From the sequence record NZ_CP049261.1: a stretch of DNA of 64,000 bases. One strand, written 5' to 3'. The position numbers and the translations under genes are program-made. Positions 7,928 through 22,335 of the stretch are shown here, piece after piece. Origin of the DNA: a plasmid. Under the pieces are notes generated by a model. That model saw only the letters and a list, made by a program, of their open reading frames with translations, was not told where the DNA came from and did no database searches. Position 1 is the stretch's first letter; every line of letters starts with the position of its first letter.

Positions 7928-10119
7928 ATGAAGCGTCATCATCTTTGGGTATTGAATCCTTGTTTACTTGCCATGATTTCTGCCTCCGCCTGGGGGGCAC
8001 CGCAGAAAGAAGAGACGCTGGTGGTTGCCGCCAGCCGTACCGGACACAGCGCGGCGGATATGGCACAGACCACGTGGGTTATCGAACAGGCTGACATTGA
8101 ACAGCAGGTTCAGGGCGGTAAAGAGTTAAAAGAAGTGCTGGCACAGCTGATCCCCGGCATGGATGTCAGCAGTCAGGGGCGCACCAATTACGGCATGAAC
8201 ATGCGTGGCCGCTCCATGATGGTGATGGTTGACGGCGTGCGTCTGAACTCCTCACGCAGCGACAGCCGCCAGCTGGATTCCATCGATCCGTTTAACATTG
8301 AGCGCATCGAAGTTATCTCCGGTGCGACCTCGCTGTACGGCGGTGGCAGCACCGGCGGTCTTATCAATATCGTGACCAAAAAAGGCCAGCCGGAGACGCA
8401 GGTTGAGTTCCAGACCGGGATGAAAACCGCTTTAACAGCCATAACGATCATGACGAAAATATGGCGGCAGCGGTGAGCGGCGGCAATGACAATGCCTCCG
8501 GGCGTCTGTCCGTCGCCTATCAGCGCTATGGCGGCTGGTACGACGGTAACGGCGATGAATCCATTATCGATAACACCCAGACCGGCCTGCAGTATTCTGA
8601 CCGACTGGACGTGATGGGCACCGGCACGCTCAATATTGATGATCACCAGCAGCTGCAGCTCACCACGCAATACTACAAAAGCCAGTCCGACGGTAAACAC
8701 GGCCTGTTCCTCGGCGAGAATTTCTCAGCGGTCACCGGCAACGGCACCGCCTACAACAAAGGCAATCTGGATTCAGACCGTCTGCCCGGCACTGAACGCC
8801 ACCTGATTAATCTGCAGTATTCAAATTCTGATGCCTGGGCCAGGATCTGGTCGCACAGATTTACTACCGCGATGAGAGCCTGACCTATTACCCGTTCCCG
8901 ACGCTGAACGGCGATAAAACGCGGGTAACCAGCATTGGTGCCTCACAGCAGAAAACGGATTTCTGGGGCGGCAAACTCACAGTCAACAGCAAGCCGCTGG
9001 ATTCCCTTTCTCTGACCTATGGTGTGGATGCCGAGCATGAAACCTTTAATGCCAACCAGCAGTTTTTCGATCTGAATAAAGCGGCCGCCAGCGGCGGCAT
9101 GAAGCTTGATAACGCATATAACGTCGGGCGCTACCCGGATTACAGCATTACGAACCTGGCTCCGTTCCTGCAGGCAAGTTATGACATCGATGCGATCACG
9201 TTAAGCGGCGGTGTGCGCTATCAGTACACCGAGAATAAGGTCGATGATTTTGTCGGTTATACCCAGCAGCAGGGCATCGCCACCGGTAAAGCGACGTCTG
9301 CGGATGCCGTGCCGGGCGGCAAAACGGATTACAACAATCTGCTGTTTAACGCCGGTATTCTCGGCCACCTGAGTGAACGTCAGCAGCTGTGGTTTAACTT
9401 CTCACAGGGGTTCGAACTGCCCGATCTCGCCAAATATTATGGCTCCGGCACCTATCGTCTTGAGAATGGCCACTACCGTTTGCTCAAAAGCGTTAACGTG
9501 AATGACTCGCGTCTGGACGGTATTAAAGTCGACAGCTATGAGCTCGGCTGGCGTTACACCGGCGATAACCTGCGTACCCAGCTCGCGGCGTACTACTCGG
9601 TTTCTGACAAGACCATTAACATTAACAAGACCGATATGACCATCACCCTGGATGACGACAAGCGTCGTATCTATGGGCTTGAAGGCCAGGTCGATTACTT
9701 CTTCAGTGACAGCGCGTGGAGCACCGGCGCGAACTTTAACGCCATCAAATCGGAAACCCGCGTGGACGGCGACTGGAAAAAGCTGACGGTCGACAGCGCC
9801 AGCCGTCTAAAGTCAGCGCCTGGGTTAACTGGGCACCGGATAACTGGACCCTGCGCCTGCAGAGCACCCAGACATTCGATGTGTCTGATGATGCCGGTAA
9901 GAAAATCGACGGCTATAACACGATGGACTTTATCGGCAGCTATGCGCTCCCGGTCGGTAAAATCGCGTTCAGTGTCGAAAACCTGCTGGATAAGGATTAC
10001 ACCACCGTCTGGGTCAGCGCGCGCCAGGATTGTACAGTCCGACTTATGGCTCACCGGATCTCTATACCTACAAAGGCCGCGGTCGTACGTTTGGCCTGAA
10101 TTATTCCGTTCTGTTCTGA
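7928..10119 (+). CDS. iutA: TonB-dependent ferric aerobactin receptor IutA, frameshifted
   Basis: Signal peptide, TonB box region, MAQTTWVIEQADIEQQVQGGKELK, plug domain, C-terminal GRGRTFGLNYSVLF; multiple frames. Confidence 0.85.
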
Positions 10120-10136
10120 TTACCGCCACACCACAC

Positions 10137-10164
10137 AGGCCGCCTGAGCGCGGCCTTTTTTATT
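10137..10164 (+). terminator. rho-independent terminator after iutA
   Basis: AGGCCGC-CTGAGC-GCGGCCT hairpin followed by TTTTTTATT. Confidence 0.7.
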
Positions 10165-10369
10165 GCCGCTTTCTGAAGATGTCTCGCAAAAACGCGCTCG
10201 CCGGCAGGGCTCACCGTAGTGGTTATTGATTTCCGTTCTTTCCGTGTTGTGTGCCTTAGCTTTTGGCTGATAACTCTTCCCGAACTACCTGAAACGATCT
10301 TCTTTTCCCGTCATTTGGGCTTTTCTGCCTTCGCCGTCCGCTGAAATTTCTGGCAGGAAAGGCGTCATA

Positions 10370-10635
10370 AGCATGGCGATTTCACCGTGAAATAATTCAT
10401 AAATACCATTTAAAATCAAATACTTAACCTCATAATCAGCGTGGCGAAATGCGTGAAATTTCAGTACGTGCGGCAGCAGACGTTAACACATCCACTGTAG
10501 AGAGCAGGCGAACAAGTCAGAGGCGATGCTGTGGAATAAAGAAAGGCGAGGCGAATAGTGGCGATTTCACCGTGAAATCCGTTCAGGAAAAAACGTTATT
10601 TCAGGGCGTTAACGGTGAAATCACCATGGCGAGCA
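10370..10635. promoter_or_regulatory. parS: P1-type parS centromere array (boxA ATTTCAC / boxB TCGCCA) with IHF-like site
   Basis: TGGCGATTTCACCGTGAAAT at 10374-10393 and 10559-10578; inverted copy ACGGTGAAATCACCATGGCGA 10612-10632; degenerate copy 10442-10459; AATCAAATACTTA (WATCAANNNNTTR) 10413-10426; directly downstream of parB. Confidence 0.75.
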
Positions 10636-10645
10636 GGCAGCCCGC

Positions 10646-11614
10646 TCAGGAGAGATGCTTCTTCAGAACGCTTTCAATGGCCTGGTCGAGTTCATCCTGT
10701 ACGTCACGCGACAGGCGGTTGAACTCATAGCTGAAGAGTCGTCCTTTAGTGCGCTTACGGGCGAAACGGTCTTTATCAGAGAAACGCCAGAGCGGGGAAA
10801 TAACCGCTTTGTCTTTCGGGCCCGGCGACGTGAGCAGCTCCCCTTCACGCGCGATAATGCGCATGATGCGGTTCTTCACTTCATCTTCCGCCAGATCGGT
10901 GTCTGATAGTACGATATCCACTTCACTGGCGATGGAATCGGTCAGTGTTTTCAGTGCGATGTCATTTTTCAGCAGCGTTTCTTCGACAGCGCTCAGCGTT
11001 TTATAGTCGCTGAATGTCAGCTCGGACTGAACCGGGAAGAACGCCAGCAATTCAGCACAGACCGACGCCGCCTGTAAAGCGCGGGTGACTTTAGCCTGCG
11101 ACAGCCCTTCCTGCTCGGCTATCTCTTTCTGACTCAGGCCTGCGTTTTTCAGCGCCATCAGCCGCAATCCGATTTCACGGATGTTGTGCTCTTTTGCCGT
11201 CTGGATATCTTTGGCGAGCTTGCGCGCCTCTTCTGATGTCAGCGCCGCTTCCGTCACCAGTACAGTCAGACCAGTATGACAGATGAGTGCCGCTGCACGA
11301 CGGCGGGAGCCGTCCAGAATTTCAATACGGTCACCCGCTTTCACGCCAATCGCCGGAAAGAACTGCTGGAATTTCAGCGTGCGGGTGATATCGCGCAGCG
11401 ATTCCGGCGTCAGCGCTGACTGCTCGCGCCCGTTGGTTTCCTGACGAACGAAGGTTTTTTCCGCCACATCCGCAGGCGCGACGCTTTCCAGCCGGAAGGT
11501 GGCTTTACGCCCGGAACTGAGTACAAACACTGACGTGAAAGTTTCAGCGTCCGTGCTCTCTTTAAACGGGGAATGGGTGAGTGTACGGCCAATCGTGACT
11601 CTTTTTGTGCTCAT
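10646..11614 (-). CDS. parB: plasmid partition protein ParB (P1 ParB family)
   Basis: MSTKRVTIGRTL...ILDGSRRRAAAL...GLSQKEIAEQEGLSQAKVTRALQAA...RFARKRTKGRLFSYEFNRLS, closely parallel to phage P1 ParB. Confidence 0.9.
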   Translation of the reverse strand: MSTKRVTIGRTLTHSPFKESTDAETFTSVFVLSSGRKATFRLESVAPADVAEKTFVRQETNGREQSALTPESLRDITRTLKFQQFFPAIGVKAGDRIEILDGSRRRAAALICHTGLTVLVTEAALTSEEARKLAKDIQTAKEHNIREIGLRLMALKNAGLSQKEIAEQEGLSQAKVTRALQAASVCAELLAFFPVQSELTFSDYKTLSAVEETLLKNDIALKTLTDSIASEVDIVLSDTDLAEDEVKNRIMRIIAREGELLTSPGPKDKAVISPLWRFSDKDRFARKRTKGRLFSYEFNRLSRDVQDELDQAIESVLKKHLS

Positions 11615-11621
11615 AGTATTC

Positions 11622-12820
11622 TCAGCTCATACGAATAAATTCAATGCGATCAAAAACCGCTTTGGCGAAATCTTCAGCCGCGGCACGCGCATTTTTCAGC
11701 GCCTCGCTGCTGCCGATGTAAGTGGCGGGGTTTGCGGAAATCACCGTATCAAATGACTCTCCGCAGCGCTCAAAGCCGTCCAGGCGGGGCAGGGCGACAT
11801 CCAGCATATCGCCGCCGAAAATCTCCTTGGCGAGGCTGTGGCAGAGCTTGTGGTCGGCCTTGTTGAGCAGCTTCGACATAAAGCCGATGTTTTTCTGCAG
11901 TCTCACCCGACAGCCGGACTCTTCGATCAGCGCGATGAGCTCCGGCAGACGCGTCAGGTATTTGAGCGTCGAGTGGAAATCTACCTGCGCAGGTGGCACC
12001 GGTGTAAACAGAACGTCCGAGGCGGCAATCGCGTTCATCAGGAACGCGTCCAGATGCGGGCCGCTGTCGACAAAGATAAAGTCGTAGTCTCTGGCAATCT
12101 TATCGATGATGTTCTGGCGCAGGACACCATAAATACTGGTGCCCGGCAGATGCTCCGCACAGAGCTCTTCCCAGCGAGAGGCGATAAAGGCGTCTTCAAT
12201 AGAAGCTGGCATCACATCCACGCCCGGCACAATCGACGGCACAATAAATTCTTCCAGCAGTTCTTCACGCGACACATTCTGCAGCATGGCCTGCGCGCTG
12301 GTGGTATCGACAGTGCCGACCGCGCGGGTGTGATTAAGGAACATGGTTGCGGAAGACTGCGGATCGAGATCGACCACCAGAATGCGCAGATCTTCAAACA
12401 GCAGGTGAGGATGCACACGGAGCGCATGGGCAAGGGAAACCGTGGAAACCGTTTTGGAGACGCCGCCTTTCAGATTACCAACAAAAATGGTGAACGCTTC
12501 ATCATGACGGTCGCGGTATTTAGGCACGCCACGGTGATGGTAGAGATCGATAATATTCTGAACGGACATCGCATACTTGGTGGAAGAGCCCGCCGCGCGT
12601 TTATCAAAGACGTATCCGTTTGCTTCCATCTCACTGACGGCGTAATCAACGCTGGCGCGGGTCAGTCGCGGAAGTTTGGCCAGTGCCGCTTTGGCGTAGA
12701 CCTGATAGAAGGTGTTTTCCTGAAGCTCATCTTTCTGATGCTGGATCTGCTCGGTCAGCCGAGAAGCATTCTTTCTGAACGTTCGGCAACTTTCGTTAAC
12801 TGCTGCTCATTATCCATCAT
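11622..12820 (-). CDS. parA: partition ATPase ParA (P1 ParA family, N-terminal HTH), frameshift near 12755
   Basis: MMDNEQQLTKVAERSERML then shift to ...NTFYQVYAKAALAKLPRLTRASVDYAVSEMEANGYVFDKR...VGNLKGGVSKT (deviant Walker A)...; near-collinear with P1 ParA. Confidence 0.85.
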
Positions 12821-13039
12821 AACACTCACTGTATGCAGGATTTATTAATTTAAACGAAAATACAGCATAAAAGTCAGGTAGTAAACATAAATGTTGTACT
12901 TGTGTGCGCGTGTTCAAATCGCTGACGTCATAAGAGGTTAGTGCCAGAATCAGCAGCGCTCACCGCAAAAACGAACGTGCGTCAGCCGTTCGTTTGAGGA
13001 AGCGCAAAAGAGCGGAGGTTAAATGGGGCGTGGGATGCA

Positions 13040-13130
13040 TATGACATGATTTTATCCACAGGCCAGATCTAAGTTTTCGATCCAGATAAGATCCCTTATA
13101 TGATCCTTAAAGATCCCTTTTCTGAATTTC
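13040..13130. other. oriR-like origin segment: DnaA box plus GATC cluster
   Basis: TTATCCACA at 13041-13049; five GATC sites in 60 bp (13064-13125); AT-rich. Confidence 0.65.
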
Positions 13131-13149
13131 TTAATACGATCAGAAGGTT

Positions 13150-13270
13150 GCGGCAGTTTCTAACCACTATAGCGAGCAGAACATCCACTGAAGCGAGCCG
13201 GATAACCACTGTAGCGAGGAGAGTAACGGCTGAAGAGAGTGCCTGGCATCCACTGTAGCGAGTAAAACGC
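13150..13270 (+). repeat. RepA iteron cluster 1 (about 5 copies, consensus near ATCCACTGTAGCGAGTAAA)
   Basis: Direct repeats AACCACTATAGCGAG, CATCCACTGAAGCGAG, ACCACTGTAGCGAG, CATCCACTGTAGCGAG about 22-24 bp apart. Confidence 0.7.
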
Positions 13271-13444
13271 AGGACTTTTCCATGACGGCCCTCTCTTTAT
13301 AACTGACTGTATTAAAAAGGGTTTCACCTTCTTCTTGTCAAGTTACTCCTGCGCATCAACATGTTTATTCACAGAGTCAGTACGTCTTTTATGTCTGGCT
13401 GCGGGTGACTGTAACAGACTGACATGCTCCTGTATGCGTTCGGG

Positions 13445-13642
13445 CTATCCACTATAGCGAGTAAATGACTGGATCCTGTCACGCTATCAACTAAAACAAC
13501 CACTACGGAGAGTAAATAACCACTGTAGTGAGCAAACATCCACTGTGGAGAGTAAACAGCGCGGATAAGCATGTGACATATCCACTATGGTGAGTGATAC
13601 TCTCACTGGCGAAGATAATAACCACTATGGTGAGTAAGCACC
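13445..13642 (+). repeat. RepA iteron cluster 2 (about 6 copies) overlapping repA promoter and start
   Basis: TATCCACTATAGCGAG, AACCACTACGGAGAG, CCACTGTAGTGAG, ATCCACTGTGGAGAG, ATCCACTATGGTGAG, AACCACTATGGTGAG. Confidence 0.7.
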
Positions 13643-14682
13643 GGTATTCAGGACAGGAGACCCCGCACGTGGCTGATGAAGAGAACATCAATATCAACGA
13701 TGCCTTCAGTGAACTGGATCGTAAAACCGGCGAAGTGGTCACGCTGATGCCGAACCGTAACAACACGGTACAGCCGGTCGCGCTGATGCGCCTTGGCCTG
13801 TTTGTCCCGACGCTGAAATCCACCGCCCGTGGCCGTAAAGGGCAGATGTCCTCGATGGATGTGACAGAAGAGCTGAAACAGCTCTCGCTCGTTAAATCTG
13901 AAGGCTACGAGAATATCAAAATCACCGGTGCCCGCCTGGACATGGATAACGACTTCAAAACCTGGGTCGGGATCATCCATGCTTTCGCCAAATACAACGT
14001 GCTTGGCGACAGCGTGACGCTGCCGTTTGTGGAGTTCGTGAAGCTGTGCGGTATTCCTTCGGCGCGTTCGTCGGCAAAGCTGCGTAAACGTCTTGATGCC
14101 TCGCTGACCCGTATCGCCACTAATACCATCTCCTTCAGCAATAAAGAAGGGGAGTATTACGTCACGCACCTGGTGCAGTCCGCCAAGTACAGTGCCAAAA
14201 AGGATGAAGTGACGCTGCAGGCCGATCCGAAAATCTTTGAGCTATACCAGTTCGATAAAAAAGTTCTGCTGCAGCTGCGGGCCATTAATGAGCTGTCGCG
14301 TAAGGAATCGGCTCAGGCGCTGTATACGTTTATTGAGAGCTTGCCGCCTAACCCTGCGCCTGTCTCCCTTGCACGCCTGCGCGCGCGCCTGAATCTCACC
14401 TCCCGCACCATCACGCAGAACTCCACCGTGCGTAAGGCGATGGAGCAGCTCAAGGAGATTGGCTATCTCGATTACACCGAGATCAAGCGCGGGCGGGTAG
14501 TCTACTTTCATATCCACTACAGAAGGCCAAAACTTCGCCCACAAAGCCTGCCAGGCGCGCTGCCTGCCGGTGACGAGTTGCCGGTAGAAAACAGCGCTGT
14601 ACCGGAAGAGCAGGGCGAAATGGTGATGCTGACCAAAGAAGAGCTGGCGCTGCTGGAAAAAATCCGTAAAGGCCAGATCTGA
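13627..14682 (+). CDS. repA: replication initiator RepA (P1/IncY family); start uncertain (GTG 13594 or ATG 13627)
   Basis: [17 protein letters not shown]...[22 protein letters not shown]...[27 protein letters not shown]...IGYLDYTE matches P1 RepA blocks. Confidence 0.85.
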
Positions 14683-14830
14683 ATATCCACTGTAGTGAGT
14701 ACGGCATGTGGAGATTTTACTCTTATGCTCGCTACAGTGGATTTTGCTATCTATAGTGGATGTTACTCTCCTTAGTGGATGTTTCACGCCTGTATACTCT
14801 CTACAGTGGATACAAAGCTCATGTGCCACA
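14683..14830 (-). repeat. incA-like iteron cluster downstream of repA (1 direct and about 4 inverted copies)
   Basis: ATATCCACTGTAGTGAG (direct) then CGCTACAGTGGAT, CTATAGTGGATG, CTTAGTGGATG, CTCTACAGTGGATA (inverted). Confidence 0.65.
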
Positions 14831-14860
14831 TTGGATCCTGAAACACCGTGAATAATCTGG

Positions 14861-14880
14861 CGATTTCAGCGTGAAACTCT
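14861..14880. promoter_or_regulatory. additional parS-like boxA/boxB site
   Basis: TGGCGATTTCAGCGTGAAAC, one or two mismatches to the 10374 copy. Confidence 0.5.
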
Positions 14881-15050
14881 GATTCTTAATTCTGTAAAAA
14901 CAGCGAGTTAGAGGTAAAAGAGCGTGGCGAGTGATTACCTTCATAATTTTCCGCGAGTCTTCTGTCTTTTCCATAACGGAAACAGGGGGCCTTTACCGTT
15001 TTAGCATGGCGGTCTGTGACCGGAACCGCTTTTTTGCAGGGAATGACGTT

Positions 15051-15667
15051 ATGAATCTTCTCCTTATCCGTCATGCCGAAACAGAATGGAACCGTGGCGG
15101 GCTCATTCAGGGCATCATGACAGCGCGCTGACGGCGCGTGGCTTGCAGGAAACCACAGCGCTCCTGACTGCTCTGGCGCACGAATTCCCCTCTGTTGACG
15201 CGGTGTACACATCTCCCGCGGGCCGCGCGCGCCATATGGGTGACGCCATCGCGAGCCATTTTCGCTGCCCACTCTCTGTTGAGCCTCTATTACGTGAGCA
15301 GGCGTTTGGTGATTACGAAGGCCTGTCGCGGGTGCAGTTGCAGCGAGATGAGCCTCTCAGCGCAGAAGCGCTGTTTTCAACTGATGCGTTATTTACGCCG
15401 CCCGGCGGTGAATCGCTCGCGTATGCCGCGCAGCGTCTTCTGTCTTTCATCCAGAATGATCTCGCCGCAACCTCACACGCAACCTGCTGCGTCGTGACGC
15501 ACGGGCATATCCTTCAGGGCGCGCTGGCGCTCCTCAAAGACGGCAATATCGATAACTTCCCGCGCTATGCGCAGCCTAACGCCAGCTATGCGCGGTTAAC
15601 GTTTACGGCGGACCGCTGCGACGTCATTCAGTGGGGCATCGCGACCCATTTGCGACACCTGTCATAA
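15051..15667 (+). CDS. histidine phosphatase family protein (phosphoglycerate-mutase-like), frameshift near 15110
   Basis: MNLLLIRHAETEWN (RHG catalytic motif) then shift to ...TARGLQETTALLTAL...VTHGHIL. Confidence 0.7.
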
Positions 15668-16533: not shown

Positions 16534-16656
16534 GTTCTTCCTTCTTACCCGCGGCACGCGCCGCGGGTTCTCCTCTCTGTTTTTCCTTTCACAACGGTTT
16601 TGCCCTCGCTGCCCTGTGCCGTACACTGTCTCTTAGTACACATGCAGGAAGCTCAA

Positions 16657-17715
16657 ATGACACATTACTGGTGGAAAGATTTACACGATCGTAATGACGC
16701 CTGGCTGGGGCTTGCGCTGACGGTAAAGGGCGAAACGCCCCCAGGCCTGGCGCTGGAGATGCTGAGCGGACATCACGGACGCATGGCGTTGCAGCTGCGC
16801 GGCGAAACGCTTTTCTGGGCTTCGATGCTGAAAGATTATTCCGGCGTCTGGCTCGTCACCAACCGTGAGCATCCCGATCAGCAAAATTTGCTGCCGCCGG
16901 TGCGCTCTGAGGACATTGAAGCCATCAAACGCAAGGGTGACGGCGCGTGGACGGGCGAGTGGTGCCGCTATTTCGCGCGTCAGCTGATGGATTCTCCCGC
17001 GCCGCTGCTGGCGCCGCGCGACTGGCTGTTGCGCCCGATGCTGCCCGCGAAACGCCAGTCGTCATACCTGCGCAACACCACGCCCGACATCGACCAGTGG
17101 TATTTCAAAACGCCCCCCAGCGCAGGCGACTGGAGTGTGGACTGGGCGCTTTATGGCGAAGATTTTCGCTCGCTCACTGACCCGGAGCACGTCCGGCTGG
17201 TGGACTGGTGGTGGGGCGGCCATCTGCTGATGGGCCGTTATCCGGTTGATCCGCACGCCGGGCGTCTTAAGTGGTGGCGTAAAAAATGCCGCGAGGGCGC
17301 GCTGCCGCCGGTGCTGGTCTGGTATGTCGCCGGGCTGGCGTCTTATATCGTGCTGGACGGCCATTATCGCCTGCACGCCGCGATGGAAGAGGGCATCCCG
17401 CCGTCATTCCTGGTGCTGAGCGAATACGCCGAGCGGGAGTTCCCGGCGGACGAGGCGCAGCGCGAGCGGGTGCAGCGGGCGCTGGCGTTACAGCAGGCGA
17501 ACAATCCGGGCTGCAATATTGATGGCATTAATCAGACGTTAATTAATCTGTGGGACCGGCGTTATCTTTACGCCGAAACGCACAGCCGCGCCACGCTCGG
17601 CAACGGCGAAGGCTGGGCGCGTGAGGTTACGGCTTATCTGCGTCGCCACGGGCAGACGACGTATCTGGAGAATGTCCTTAACGGCACGGAAAACCCGGTC
17701 GACGACGCCGGGTGA
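16657..17715 (+). CDS. hypothetical Trp-rich protein with C-terminal ParB/Srx-like DGHYR motif
   Basis: 353 aa from ATG 16657 with AGGAAG SD; ...VLVWYVAGLASYIVLDGHYRLHAAMEEGIPPSFLVL (17347-17400) resembles the ParB nuclease-fold core. Confidence 0.5.
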   Translation: MTHYWWKDLHDRNDAWLGLALTVKGETPPGLALEMLSGHHGRMALQLRGETLFWASMLKDYSGVWLVTNREHPDQQNLLPPVRSEDIEAIKRKGDGAWTGEWCRYFARQLMDSPAPLLAPRDWLLRPMLPAKRQSSYLRNTTPDIDQWYFKTPPSAGDWSVDWALYGEDFRSLTDPEHVRLVDWWWGGHLLMGRYPVDPHAGRLKWWRKKCREGALPPVLVWYVAGLASYIVLDGHYRLHAAMEEGIPPSFLVLSEYAEREFPADEAQRERVQRALALQQANNPGCNIDGINQTLINLWDRRYLYAETHSRATLGNGEGWAREVTAYLRRHGQTTYLENVLNGTENPVDDAG

Positions 17716-21256: not shown

Positions 21257-21799
21257 ATGAAACTGAGCGCGCTGTTTATCGCCTCTCTGCTCATGGCGGG
21301 CTATGTCTGTGCCGGCCAGGCTGTTCCCGTAGCGCTGAAAGATGGCCCGAACACGCTGGATATCAATCAGGATGGCGCGAACGATCTGATTTTCAGCGCC
21401 ACCTATGACAATAATACCTCCCACCCCAGCAGCACGCTGACGGTTTATATTCAGAAAGACCACGCCTGGCTGATTGTTCCGGTGCCGGATGACGATGGCT
21501 TTACGTGGAGCGATTTTCGGCTGTCCGCCTCAACCACGAAAATCAGCGGCTATGAACCGTATCAGGTTAATCATATTTTTTATCTGGTCCGGGCGGTGAA
21601 AATGGCAGAGTCTTCAGAAAGTACTGATTTAACCGATGCCACGAAAGTGAAGTTCACGCGCTACCGGATAGCCAGTAATACCGCCGATCCGGGCGTCGCG
21701 GCCTTTTTCTGGCAGCCGTCCGGCAGTTACGTGACGGACGCCGCTTACAGCGATGTGGACGAGGCTTTTCGCACACTGAATATGGATAAATTTCTTTGA
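21257..21799 (+). CDS. hypothetical exported protein (signal peptide)
   Basis: MKLSALFIASLLMAGYVCAGQA signal peptide; 180 aa; no recognisable domain. Confidence 0.5.
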   Translation: MKLSALFIASLLMAGYVCAGQAVPVALKDGPNTLDINQDGANDLIFSATYDNNTSHPSSTLTVYIQKDHAWLIVPVPDDDGFTWSDFRLSASTTKISGYEPYQVNHIFYLVRAVKMAESSESTDLTDATKVKFTRYRIASNTADPGVAAFFWQPSGSYVTDAAYSDVDEAFRTLNMDKFL

Positions 21800-22335
21800 A
21801 GCGGCGGGCGGCGCTGGCCATGCTCCTCATCAGTACGAACAGTATGGCGCAGCAGGCCGCGCCTTATCGTGCGCTGCTACAGCAGGCGCTCAACGCCCGG
21901 TCGCTGTGTCTTGGCGAAACGGCCTGGCCGGTAACAAGCCGCGCGGGCGCTGATGCCTGGCTGCACGCCCGGATGGCAGCGCTGGTGGATGCCGGGCTTG
22001 TCTTGAGCAGGCGCGAAGGCTCTCAAAAAACCTGGGCGCTGACGCCCAAAGGGCGCGCGGAATTTCACCGGCATCACGATTTCTGCTACGGAAAAATGCG
22101 CGTCAAAACGCTGGAGGTTAAGCCGCAGCGCGATGGCATCCATGCGACCTTCACGTATGATATTCCAGCGCTGCCGCAATGGGCTAAGACGCCCGCTCTG
22201 CGTATGGCGGATTCAGAGCTGGATAATCTCATCAGCGGTATCGATAAGGTGCATTATCAGGCCATTTTTATTCGCGGGGATAATGGCAAACTCCGGCTCG
22301 TCCGCGGGCCAGAACCGCTGGATTTACTTTACTGA
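21796..22335 (+). CDS. hypothetical exported protein, translationally coupled (TTG start overlapping stop)
   Basis: MKRRAALAMLLISTNSMAQQ signal peptide; TTGA overlap with upstream gene. Confidence 0.45.
   Translation: MKRRAALAMLLISTNSMAQQAAPYRALLQQALNARSLCLGETAWPVTSRAGADAWLHARMAALVDAGLVLSRREGSQKTWALTPKGRAEFHRHHDFCYGKMRVKTLEVKPQRDGIHATFTYDIPALPQWAKTPALRMADSELDNLISGIDKVHYQAIFIRGDNGKLRLVRGPEPLDLLY

Follow-up and report, generated by a model that had tools for sequence, protein, structure and literature searches.

The parS site of P1 is the textbook bipartite centromere bent by integration host factor (IHF), and it is always drawn as a single site. Here we analyse the partition region of a 64,000-nucleotide (nt) stretch of plasmid DNA from sequence record NZ_CP049261.1 (hereafter referred to as the window), which is that of a pESA3-like, virulence-type RepFIB plasmid of Cronobacter sakazakii and in which elements resembling the boxA and boxB motifs of P1 parS recur between positions 10370 and 10640. 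A first-pass annotation read these elements as an expanded centromere with at least three boxA/boxB copies, an IHF-like site and an isolated iteron of the replication initiator RepA. How many centromere sites does this plasmid carry, how is each of them built, and what might RepA-binding sites be doing among them? We found that the repeated elements are the arms of two complete P1-type sites, parS1 and parS2, and that a third complete site, parS3, lies beyond the replicon; together, the sites bracket the whole 4.6-kb par–rep module. We consider it probable that they constitute a multi-site P1-type centromere around the replicon, in which RepA-bound iterons would serve as barriers to ParB spreading, as handcuffing partners, or as both.

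We parsed the region on the minus strand, in the direction of the par genes, and set it beside P1 parS from K02380. In P1, IHF bends the spacer of the site, and a ParB dimer contacts boxA through its helix-turn-helix (HTH) domains and boxB through its dimerized C-terminal domain, bridging the two arms (PMC10999674). The 20-mer TGGCGATTTCACCGTGAAAT, already noted as occurring identically twice, is present exactly at 10374–10393 and 10559–10578, and shuffled sequences give an expectation of 0 at three or fewer mismatches. It corresponds to the right arm of a P1-type site, in which boxB2 (TCGCCA) is fused to the inverted boxA2/boxA3 heptamers (ATTTCANNNTGAAAT-CGCCA). The parS1 site reads TCGCCA-5-ATTTCAC-36 nt-ATTTCACgGTGAAATCGCCA, with the order and spacings of P1 (boxB1-5-boxA1-36-boxA2 g boxA3 boxB2), and comprises the following parts:

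10559–10632, minus strand: parS1, a canonical P1-type site that begins 14 nt past the parB stop codon
10559–10578, minus strand: right arm of parS1 (boxA2-boxA3-boxB2), an exact 20-mer
10579–10614, minus strand: 36-nt spacer of parS1, with the IHF-register core at 10599–10611
10615–10621, minus strand: boxA1 of parS1
10627–10632, minus strand: boxB1 of parS1, 48 nt from the right arm

The other exact 20-mer belongs to a second complete site:

10374–10459, minus strand: parS2, 185 base pairs (bp) downstream of parS1
10374–10393, minus strand: right arm of parS2, an exact 20-mer
10414–10426, minus strand: IHF core of parS2, an exact match to the consensus WATCAANNNNTTR
10442–10447, minus strand: boxB1 of parS2, exactly 48 nt from the right arm and inside TGGCGAAATGCGTGAAAT (10442–10459)
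10453–10459, minus strand: a perfect boxA on the outer side of boxB1

Two elements formerly counted as further copies of the 20-mer thus find their place as left arms. The segment at 10609–10628 is indeed 89–90% complementary to the 20-mer, and the 'inverted copy' assigned to 10612–10632 is the boxA1/boxB1 left arm of parS1; similarly, TGGCGAAATGCGTGAAAT is present at 10442, where a degenerate copy had been proposed, and it is the left arm of parS2 rather than an independent copy. The IHF consensus, in itself, is not significant, with two matches to WATCAANNNNTTR in 64 kb against 1.3 expected. Its exact occurrence in parS2, which had been placed one base early (10413–10426) and listed as an accessory element, occupies spacer positions 21–33 counted from the right arm, the same register as the P1 core AAACAGTCAGTTA, where it would be the bend site of parS2 itself. 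Cores at positions 21–33 differ from WATCAANNNNTTR by two mismatches in parS1, none in parS2 and two in parS3, and the proven IHF site of P1 also has two mismatches in this register; IHF sites are predicted in all three spacers. Since the left-arm elements and the IHF cores are placed as in P1, the repeated units are two bipartite sites and not four repeats. The claim that this region holds more ParB-binding units than P1 parS therefore stands, with the four 'copies' resolved into the arms of two sites.

The inventory of ParB sites at 10370–10640 had missed a third complete site, situated on the far side of the replicon:

14858–14930, minus strand: parS3, 45 nt past the last iteron downstream of repA
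14858–14877, minus strand: right arm of parS3, with two mismatches to the 20-mer
14898–14910, minus strand: IHF core of parS3, AAACAGCGAGTTA, at spacer positions 21–33, the register of the P1 core
14925–14930, minus strand: boxB1 of parS3, 47 nt from the arm, without a clear boxA1

parS3 has the same orientation as parS1 and parS2 and lies 4.2 kb upstream, past repA. All three sites align box for box with P1 parS, and the complete 126-kb plasmid of a relative (NZ_CP104109.1) contains exactly these three right arms and no more. The position immediately downstream of parB, a hallmark of the P1par family (P1, P7, pMT1, pWR100 and Pantoea pPagL15_1), is held by parS1 and not by parS3. The sites also depart from one another in their left arms: boxA1 is at its canonical place in parS1 alone, the left arm of parS2 is swapped, with boxA outside boxB1 and a degenerate sequence at the usual inner boxA1 position, and parS3 has no boxA1. 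Furthermore, boxA4, which would follow boxB2, is absent from all three. The window has 17 exact boxA heptamers, six of them clustered at 10379–10621. ParB binding in P1 needs no more than A2-A3 and B2 (PMC10999674), so a missing boxA1 or boxA4 does not disqualify parS2 or parS3.

To place these sites in their family, we surveyed 80 loci, one per species, that encode ParB relatives of 50–77% identity, and defined a complete site as a right arm with a matching boxB 44–52 nt upstream. Among the 89 complete sites in the survey, the distance from boxB1 to the arm is exactly 48 nt in 76 and 47 nt in 10. The IHF core in the fixed register has at most two mismatches in 75 of the 89, compared with a mode of six mismatches for arms without boxB1. 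At least two complete sites are present at 25 of the 80 loci and exactly one at 22. The Pantoea and Erwinia megaplasmids (among loci L014–L062) mostly have two sites, commonly about 210–220 bp apart; in Serratia sp. H1w, three sites are spaced by about 154 bp, and their boxB reads TCTCCA in two and TCCCCA in the remaining one; elements of the P1-like and Klebsiella types have a single site. In the nearest outgroups, Franconibacter and Phytobacter, one site follows parB and an equivalent of parS3 is also present, which makes the Cronobacter parS2 duplication probably independent of that in Pantoea. The multi-site condition thus appears to have arisen independently in Cronobacter, in Pantoea/Erwinia and in Serratia, often on large plasmids or megaplasmids. 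An outer boxA like that of parS2, at one mismatch or fewer, occurs in 2 of 87 complete sites in other genera; all parS2 sites scored in Cronobacter, namely those of the window and five relatives, have it with zero mismatches.

Solitary arms that are palindromic, with a boxB at either end (TGGCG-ATTTCAGNCTGAAAT-CGCCA), also occur on Pantoea megaplasmids, several kilobases away from parB (for example, relative to the parB end, L046 +8060, L052 +8035, L050 +3100 and L041 +4145). These arms have neither a left-arm boxB1 nor an IHF core.

The cognate protein is likewise of the P1 type:

10646–11614, minus strand: parB, encoding 322 amino acids (Pfam PF08775, 'ParB family', E 1e-42)

This ParB has the C-terminal domain of the P1 protein, is 57% identical to P1 ParB and 42% identical to P7 ParB, and its residues 136–321 match the P1 ParB–parS complex structures (PDB 1ZX4/2NTZ, E 7e-69). 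Together with the right arm, boxB1 at 48 nt and the IHF core in the P1 register, this identity bears out the earlier assignment of the region to the P1 parS family. ParB Asp282 aligns with Asp288 of P1 ParB, the position that determines boxB specificity (PMC10999674). Across the family, the residue at this position covaries with boxB, with Asp accompanying TCGCCA (as in the window), Asn TCTCCA and His TCCCCA; P7 ParB has Arg. The multi-site loci with Asn are two Serratia loci, L039 and L065, in which four of the five tandem copies are TCTCCA and the third L065 copy is TCCCCA. This covariation in tandem copies indicates that extra sites largely track the specificity of their own ParB. Both the covariation and the conservation of the sites lend indirect support to specific binding by the cognate ParB and to centromere activity.

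The P1-like Cronobacter phage JK004 (L003) has a single parS at 2507–2590, with boxB TCCCCA and a His specificity residue in its ParB. As this pair differs from the TCGCCA and Asp of the pESA3-type plasmid, the two should be compatible in partition.

We next turn to the RepA-binding sites. The RepFIB-type replicon and its iterons are arranged as follows:

13161–14812, plus strand: RepFIB-type replicon (Pfam Rep3_N and Rep3_C)
about 13627–14682, plus strand: repA, Rep3 family, flanked by 15 iterons
13161–13266: array of four iterons
13446–13638: array of six iterons, overlapping the repA start
14684–14812: array of five iterons, downstream of repA
13052: DnaA box, with six GATC sites at 13066–13138, origin features just upstream of the iterons
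13365: second DnaA box, ahead of the six-iteron array
10489–10508, plus strand: orphan RepA iteron CATCCACTGTAGAGAGCAGG, between parS1 and parS2
10206–10225, minus strand: second orphan RepA iteron TAACCACTACGGTGAGC, located between parS2 and the siderophore-receptor terminator

RepA is 48% identical to P1 RepA (E 4e-91), and the origin is laid out as P1 oriR, with a DnaA box, a GATC cluster and then four iterons. We built a scoring matrix from the 15 iterons around repA (training range 20.8–33.2 bits) and took 30 shuffled windows as the null. The orphan iteron between parS1 and parS2, previously assigned to 10488–10506, scores 27.1 bits at 10489–10508, within the training range and above every shuffle, the best of which reaches 20.0 bits; like the other elements listed in the first-pass annotation, it is present within one base of its reported position. 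It is a genuine orphan iteron but not an isolated one, since a second had been overlooked at 10206–10225. This one (core 10209–10225) scores 20.9 bits on a 17-nt core matrix with a training range of 21.6–28.1 bits, and forms a conserved island amid barely alignable DNA in 8 of 8 plasmids, with a 1-bp deletion in C. universalis. The two iterons are oriented oppositely and flank parS2. Both are single sites 2.7–3 kb from the origin, outside the arrays flanking repA and the origin, and a scan revealed neither a DnaA box nor a GATC cluster near them, both features being at 13052–13138. Thus, they are orphan iterons rather than parts of an origin, and a second replication origin at 10200–10500, which the combination of iteron, IHF site and AT-rich DNA might suggest, can be ruled out on the same grounds. 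Both most likely bind RepA.

Of the three orphan iterons in the 126-kb relative, two are no more than 170 bp away from parS2. The third, TATCCACTGTGGAGAGT (26.6 bits), is at 21793–21809 of NZ_CP104109.1, within a hipA toxin gene about 11 kb from parS2 and outside the window.

To examine which of these elements are maintained, we aligned eight Cronobacter plasmids, namely the window, another C. sakazakii plasmid and plasmids of six further species (seven species in total); the Cronobacter comparisons are based on PLSDB plasmids, as a scan of genome contigs returned no Cronobacter locus. The invariant columns are distributed as follows:

parS1 right arm: 20 of 20
parS1 boxA1: 7 of 7
parS1 IHF-register core: 10 of 13
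gap 10509–10558, from parS1 to the iteron: 2 of 50
orphan iteron 10489–10505: 12 of 17
gap 10460–10488, from the iteron to parS2: 5 of 29
parS2 outer boxA: 6 of 7
parS2 boxB1: 6 of 6
parS2 IHF core: 8 of 13
parS2 right arm: 16 of 20
downstream flank 10319–10373: 0 of 55

The boxes, IHF cores and iterons alone are conserved over the seven species, and the DNA between them has 0–17% invariant columns. The iteron between parS1 and parS2 is present in 7 of 7 Cronobacter relatives, and the retention of the iteron islands across seven to eight plasmids supports selection on them. The distance between parS1 and parS2 ranges from 172 to 188 bp between species, which rules out a fixed helical phasing of the two sites. 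The distance from the 10489 iteron to parS2 is steadier, at 45–50 nt, which hints that this iteron belongs with parS2. For parS3, the arm, IHF core and boxB1 are kept in six Cronobacter relatives, Franconibacter and Phytobacter while the flanks are not, and in Tolumonas the arm is kept; parS3 is separated from the downstream iteron array by 43–46 nt in Cronobacter, Phytobacter and Tolumonas, with a wider interval of about 100 nt in Franconibacter. Distant blastn comparisons with plasmids gave no intergenic homology beyond Cronobacter.

A k-mer test for iterons between tandem parS sites was positive in the window and in five of six Cronobacter relatives; the remaining plasmid, of C. turicensis, gave no tandem pair, yet the alignment shows the iteron. 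None was found by this test in 40 pairs from other genera, and Erwinia sp. S63 has a single weak 9-mer match to the iteron, which is partial only. Orphan iterons as a general trait of tandem parS sites are ruled out by these 40 pairs. The interleaved iterons and the swapped parS2 left arm are, as far as the compared sequences indicate, specific to Cronobacter.

How might three sites and scattered iterons work together? By homology with P1, IHF bending of each site would let one ParB dimer bridge both arms, each bent site would nucleate ParB loading and spreading, and ParA would move the resulting partition complex. With three nucleation sites, the complex could become larger or more robust and could also take in the origin, comparable to the clustering of chromosomal parS sites around oriC. 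For the iterons, we prefer a role in which RepA, bound at the orphan iterons and at the arrays on either side of repA, would form a barrier that prevents ParB from reaching the siderophore operon, the origin or repA and concentrates it at parS. The iteron at 10206–10225 would shield the siderophore operon; the arrays at 13161–13266 and 14684–14812 would shield the origin and repA from ParB arriving from parS1 and parS3; and parS2 would lie within a 264-bp fenced compartment between the orphan iterons. The orphan iterons might also be auxiliary handcuffing or titration sites in copy-number control, a function that does not exclude one as roadblocks.

In P1 and F, complexes of RepA or RepE with iterons are known to act as barriers against the spread of ParB (PMC6238139, PMC7725951, PMC3688505), and a P1 iteron array has been used as such a roadblock (PMC3688505). 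Handcuffing between rep and par is plausible, because RepA is 48% identical to the P1 initiator, whose iterons provide the handcuffing model; published work supports the roadblock role at least as well (PMC6238139, PMC3688505).

Several observations weigh against this picture of a multi-site centromere fenced by RepA. The published roadblocks are arrays of five iterons, not single ones (PMC3688505), and the 40 tandem pairs of related genera do without interleaved iterons. The pairing of iteron and parS could be a historical by-product of duplicating the junction between an iteron and parS3. ParB affinity could be low at parS2 and parS3, since both lack the canonical boxA1 and parS3 has 47 instead of 48 nt between boxB1 and arm. 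In parS1, a boxA-like heptamer (ATTTCAG, 10598–10604) overlaps the spacer core, so the core may serve ParB rather than IHF. Finally, the variable spacing between parS1 and parS2 argues against a single, rigid, co-wrapped complex of the two.

Other readings of the locus have to be set against these. The extra sites might be mainly regulatory, with ParB at parS3 and parS2 modulating RepA–iteron interactions or silencing neighbouring genes, in the manner of ParB2 on Vibrio cholerae chromosome II and of KorB on RK2; we regard this as unlikely, although not negligibly so. The closeness of parS3 to the downstream iteron array in three genera (with the wider interval in Franconibacter) and of two orphan iterons to parS2 in the 126-kb relative would fit it, and ParB spreading from a centromere site into replication-control sites has a precedent (PMC3688505). 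Position, however, is the sole basis for this reading.

A related idea, which we consider unlikely, is that replication control and partition in this plasmid are coupled, both physically and in regulation, through the reciprocal interleaving itself, a full parS lying against the copy-control iterons and RepA iterons lying on both sides of a parS. ParB at parS3 and parS2 would compete with RepA or be fenced by it, and ParB, by bridging the three parS sites, would carry the orphan iterons to the origin, such that assembly of the partition complex tunes handcuffing and copy number while RepA occupancy shapes the centromere. If true, this arrangement would be the plasmid counterpart of the ParB2–rctA circuit of V. 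cholerae chromosome II.

The architecture first proposed, one expanded centromere of at least three independent boxA/boxB repeats with an accessory IHF site and an orphan iteron that handcuffs the par locus to the origin, now seems rather improbable. Its ingredients are all real, that is, the repeated 20-mer, the IHF consensus and the iteron; moreover, RepA is a homologue of P1 RepA, and P1 iterons pair by handcuffing (cited in PMC3688505). Nevertheless, the inverted and degenerate copies occupy the place of the P1 left arm, with boxB1 48 nt off and the IHF core in the P1 register. As for handcuffing, its effects cannot be distinguished here from those of a roadblock or of simple titration, and one or two iterons would add little to the 15 of the replicon.

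That parS1 is the sole working centromere, and parS2, parS3 and the orphan iterons are functionless, decaying relics of duplications or rearrangements of an iteron–parS junction, is very improbable: P1 and many relatives work with a single site (exactly one complete site at 22 of the 80 loci), boxA1 is degenerate and boxA4 missing in parS2 and parS3, and the parS-then-iteron layout recurs in the same relative orientation at parS3 and parS2, compatible with an origin by duplication, but neutral relics should decay like the flanks (0/55, 2/50 and 5/29 invariant columns), whereas parS2 keeps 6/6 in boxB1 and 16/20 in the right arm, the orphan iteron keeps 12/17, the parS3 arm, boxB1 spacing and IHF core are maintained in three genera, and tandem complete sites arose repeatedly (Pantoea/Erwinia, Serratia and Cronobacter).

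A comparison with known systems places the multi-site centromere closest to the P1par family. The window shares with it a parS directly after parB of a type Ia parAB operon and a boxA2-boxA3-boxB2 right arm, with a predicted IHF site at the corresponding spacer position and boxB1 at a distance of 48 nt (PMC10999674); with P1 parS in particular, it shares boxB TCGCCA and the Asp specificity residue of ParB. By contrast, the P1par family has one site where the window has three, one of them past the replicon, and only the window has a boxA outside boxB1 (parS2), lacks boxA4 at every site and interleaves RepA iterons. Rep and par are in series in P1, whereas they are divergently transcribed here. 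The replicon resembles the P1 incA/incC arrangement in its RepA homologue, in the iteron arrays flanking repA and in the DnaA box and GATC cluster placed as in P1 oriR; the iteron sequence is unrelated to that of P1, and single iterons also occur around the centromere, outside the replicon.

On V. cholerae chromosome II, initiator-bound sites are natural roadblocks to ParB spreading, and parS2-B lies beside the rctA 39-mer (PMC3688505). That locus resembles ours in having a centromere site beside the initiator-binding replication-control sites of an iteron-type replicon, and differs in its ParB family, in a parS type without IHF, boxA or boxB elements, and in its initiator, RctB. The coupling of replication and partition has been demonstrated experimentally there and is inferred from position here. 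F sopC, with 12 tandem 43-bp repeats, is similar in providing several ParB nucleation sites per replicon, and the N15 centromere reportedly consists of scattered sites, several per replicon. In F and N15, SopB-type proteins bind short, simple inverted repeats, whereas the sites described here are bipartite, IHF-type units of 74–86 bp. In F, RepE on the incC and ori2 iterons limits SopB spreading (PMC6238139, PMC7725951). A search of the literature for P1-type parS outside P1 returned one description, of a single site (PMC10999674), the primary papers on the P1par family being outside that search. The individual parts of the present arrangement are textbook; their combination, with three IHF-type sites around the replicon, one left arm swapped, and parS sites and iterons interleaved reciprocally, is apparently, and provisionally, undescribed.

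The DNA of the window is 95–97% identical to C. sakazakii pESA3-like IncFIB plasmids across 10100–12900, and 86–90% identical to the plasmids of other Cronobacter species. A megablast comparison of the par region with phage genomes gave zero matches, so the window represents a plasmid and not a P1-like prophage. The remaining features around the centromere are as follows:

11622 to about 12820, minus strand: parA, encoding a partition ATPase of type Ia whose N-terminus contains an HTH (Pfam AAA_31 and HTH_54), in an operon with parB on the same strand
end near 10119, plus strand: TonB-dependent siderophore receptor gene, the neighbour of the par region
10137–10156: terminator of the receptor gene, from a promoter/terminator scan

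Apart from this terminator, the scan returned only two weak promoter-like matches, within the AT-rich spacer of parS2, and no structured RNA matched Rfam in 10000–15200 at E values up to 1. A short hypothetical open reading frame (ORF) is annotated over parS2 in two relatives (L004, 3368–3595; L007, 3105–3320). The window has no ORF of at least 50 amino acids on that strand over parS2, and none is annotated in the other Cronobacter species; we treat this coding sequence as spurious, probably an annotation artefact over the centromere.

In the window, a 1-bp deletion near 12758 disrupts the parA frame, which reads 335 amino acids instead of 399; aligned with the intact 399-residue gene of NZ_CP104109.1, parA is 97.5% identical and has a single gap, located in a G/C run. 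Compared with this closest plasmid, 9.2 kb of the window contains eight 1-bp deletions (7194, 7601, 8428, 8836, 9802, 10010, 12758 and 15109), all within short G or C runs, which interrupt parA and divide the gene for the TonB-dependent receptor among several ORFs. This pattern suggests errors in sequencing homopolymers rather than true pseudogenes.

About 1.7 kb from parS3, an ORF at 16600–17715 (plus strand, 371 amino acids) has a counterpart in a relative annotated as 'ParB/Srx family N-terminal domain-containing protein'. The ORF has no Pfam match at E 0.001, and no counterpart is annotated beside repA in C. malonaticus, C. universalis or Cronobacter sp. JZ38.

Collectively, close relatives of the P1 system carry two or three complete parS sites (25 of 80 species-level loci), which revises the textbook picture of this centromere. 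With defined sites within a few kilobases, the locus offers a compact natural test bed for the coupling of replication and partition. Finally, boxB TCGCCA and ParB Asp282 predict that pESA3-type virulence plasmids would be incompatible in partition with plasmids and phages of P1 specificity.

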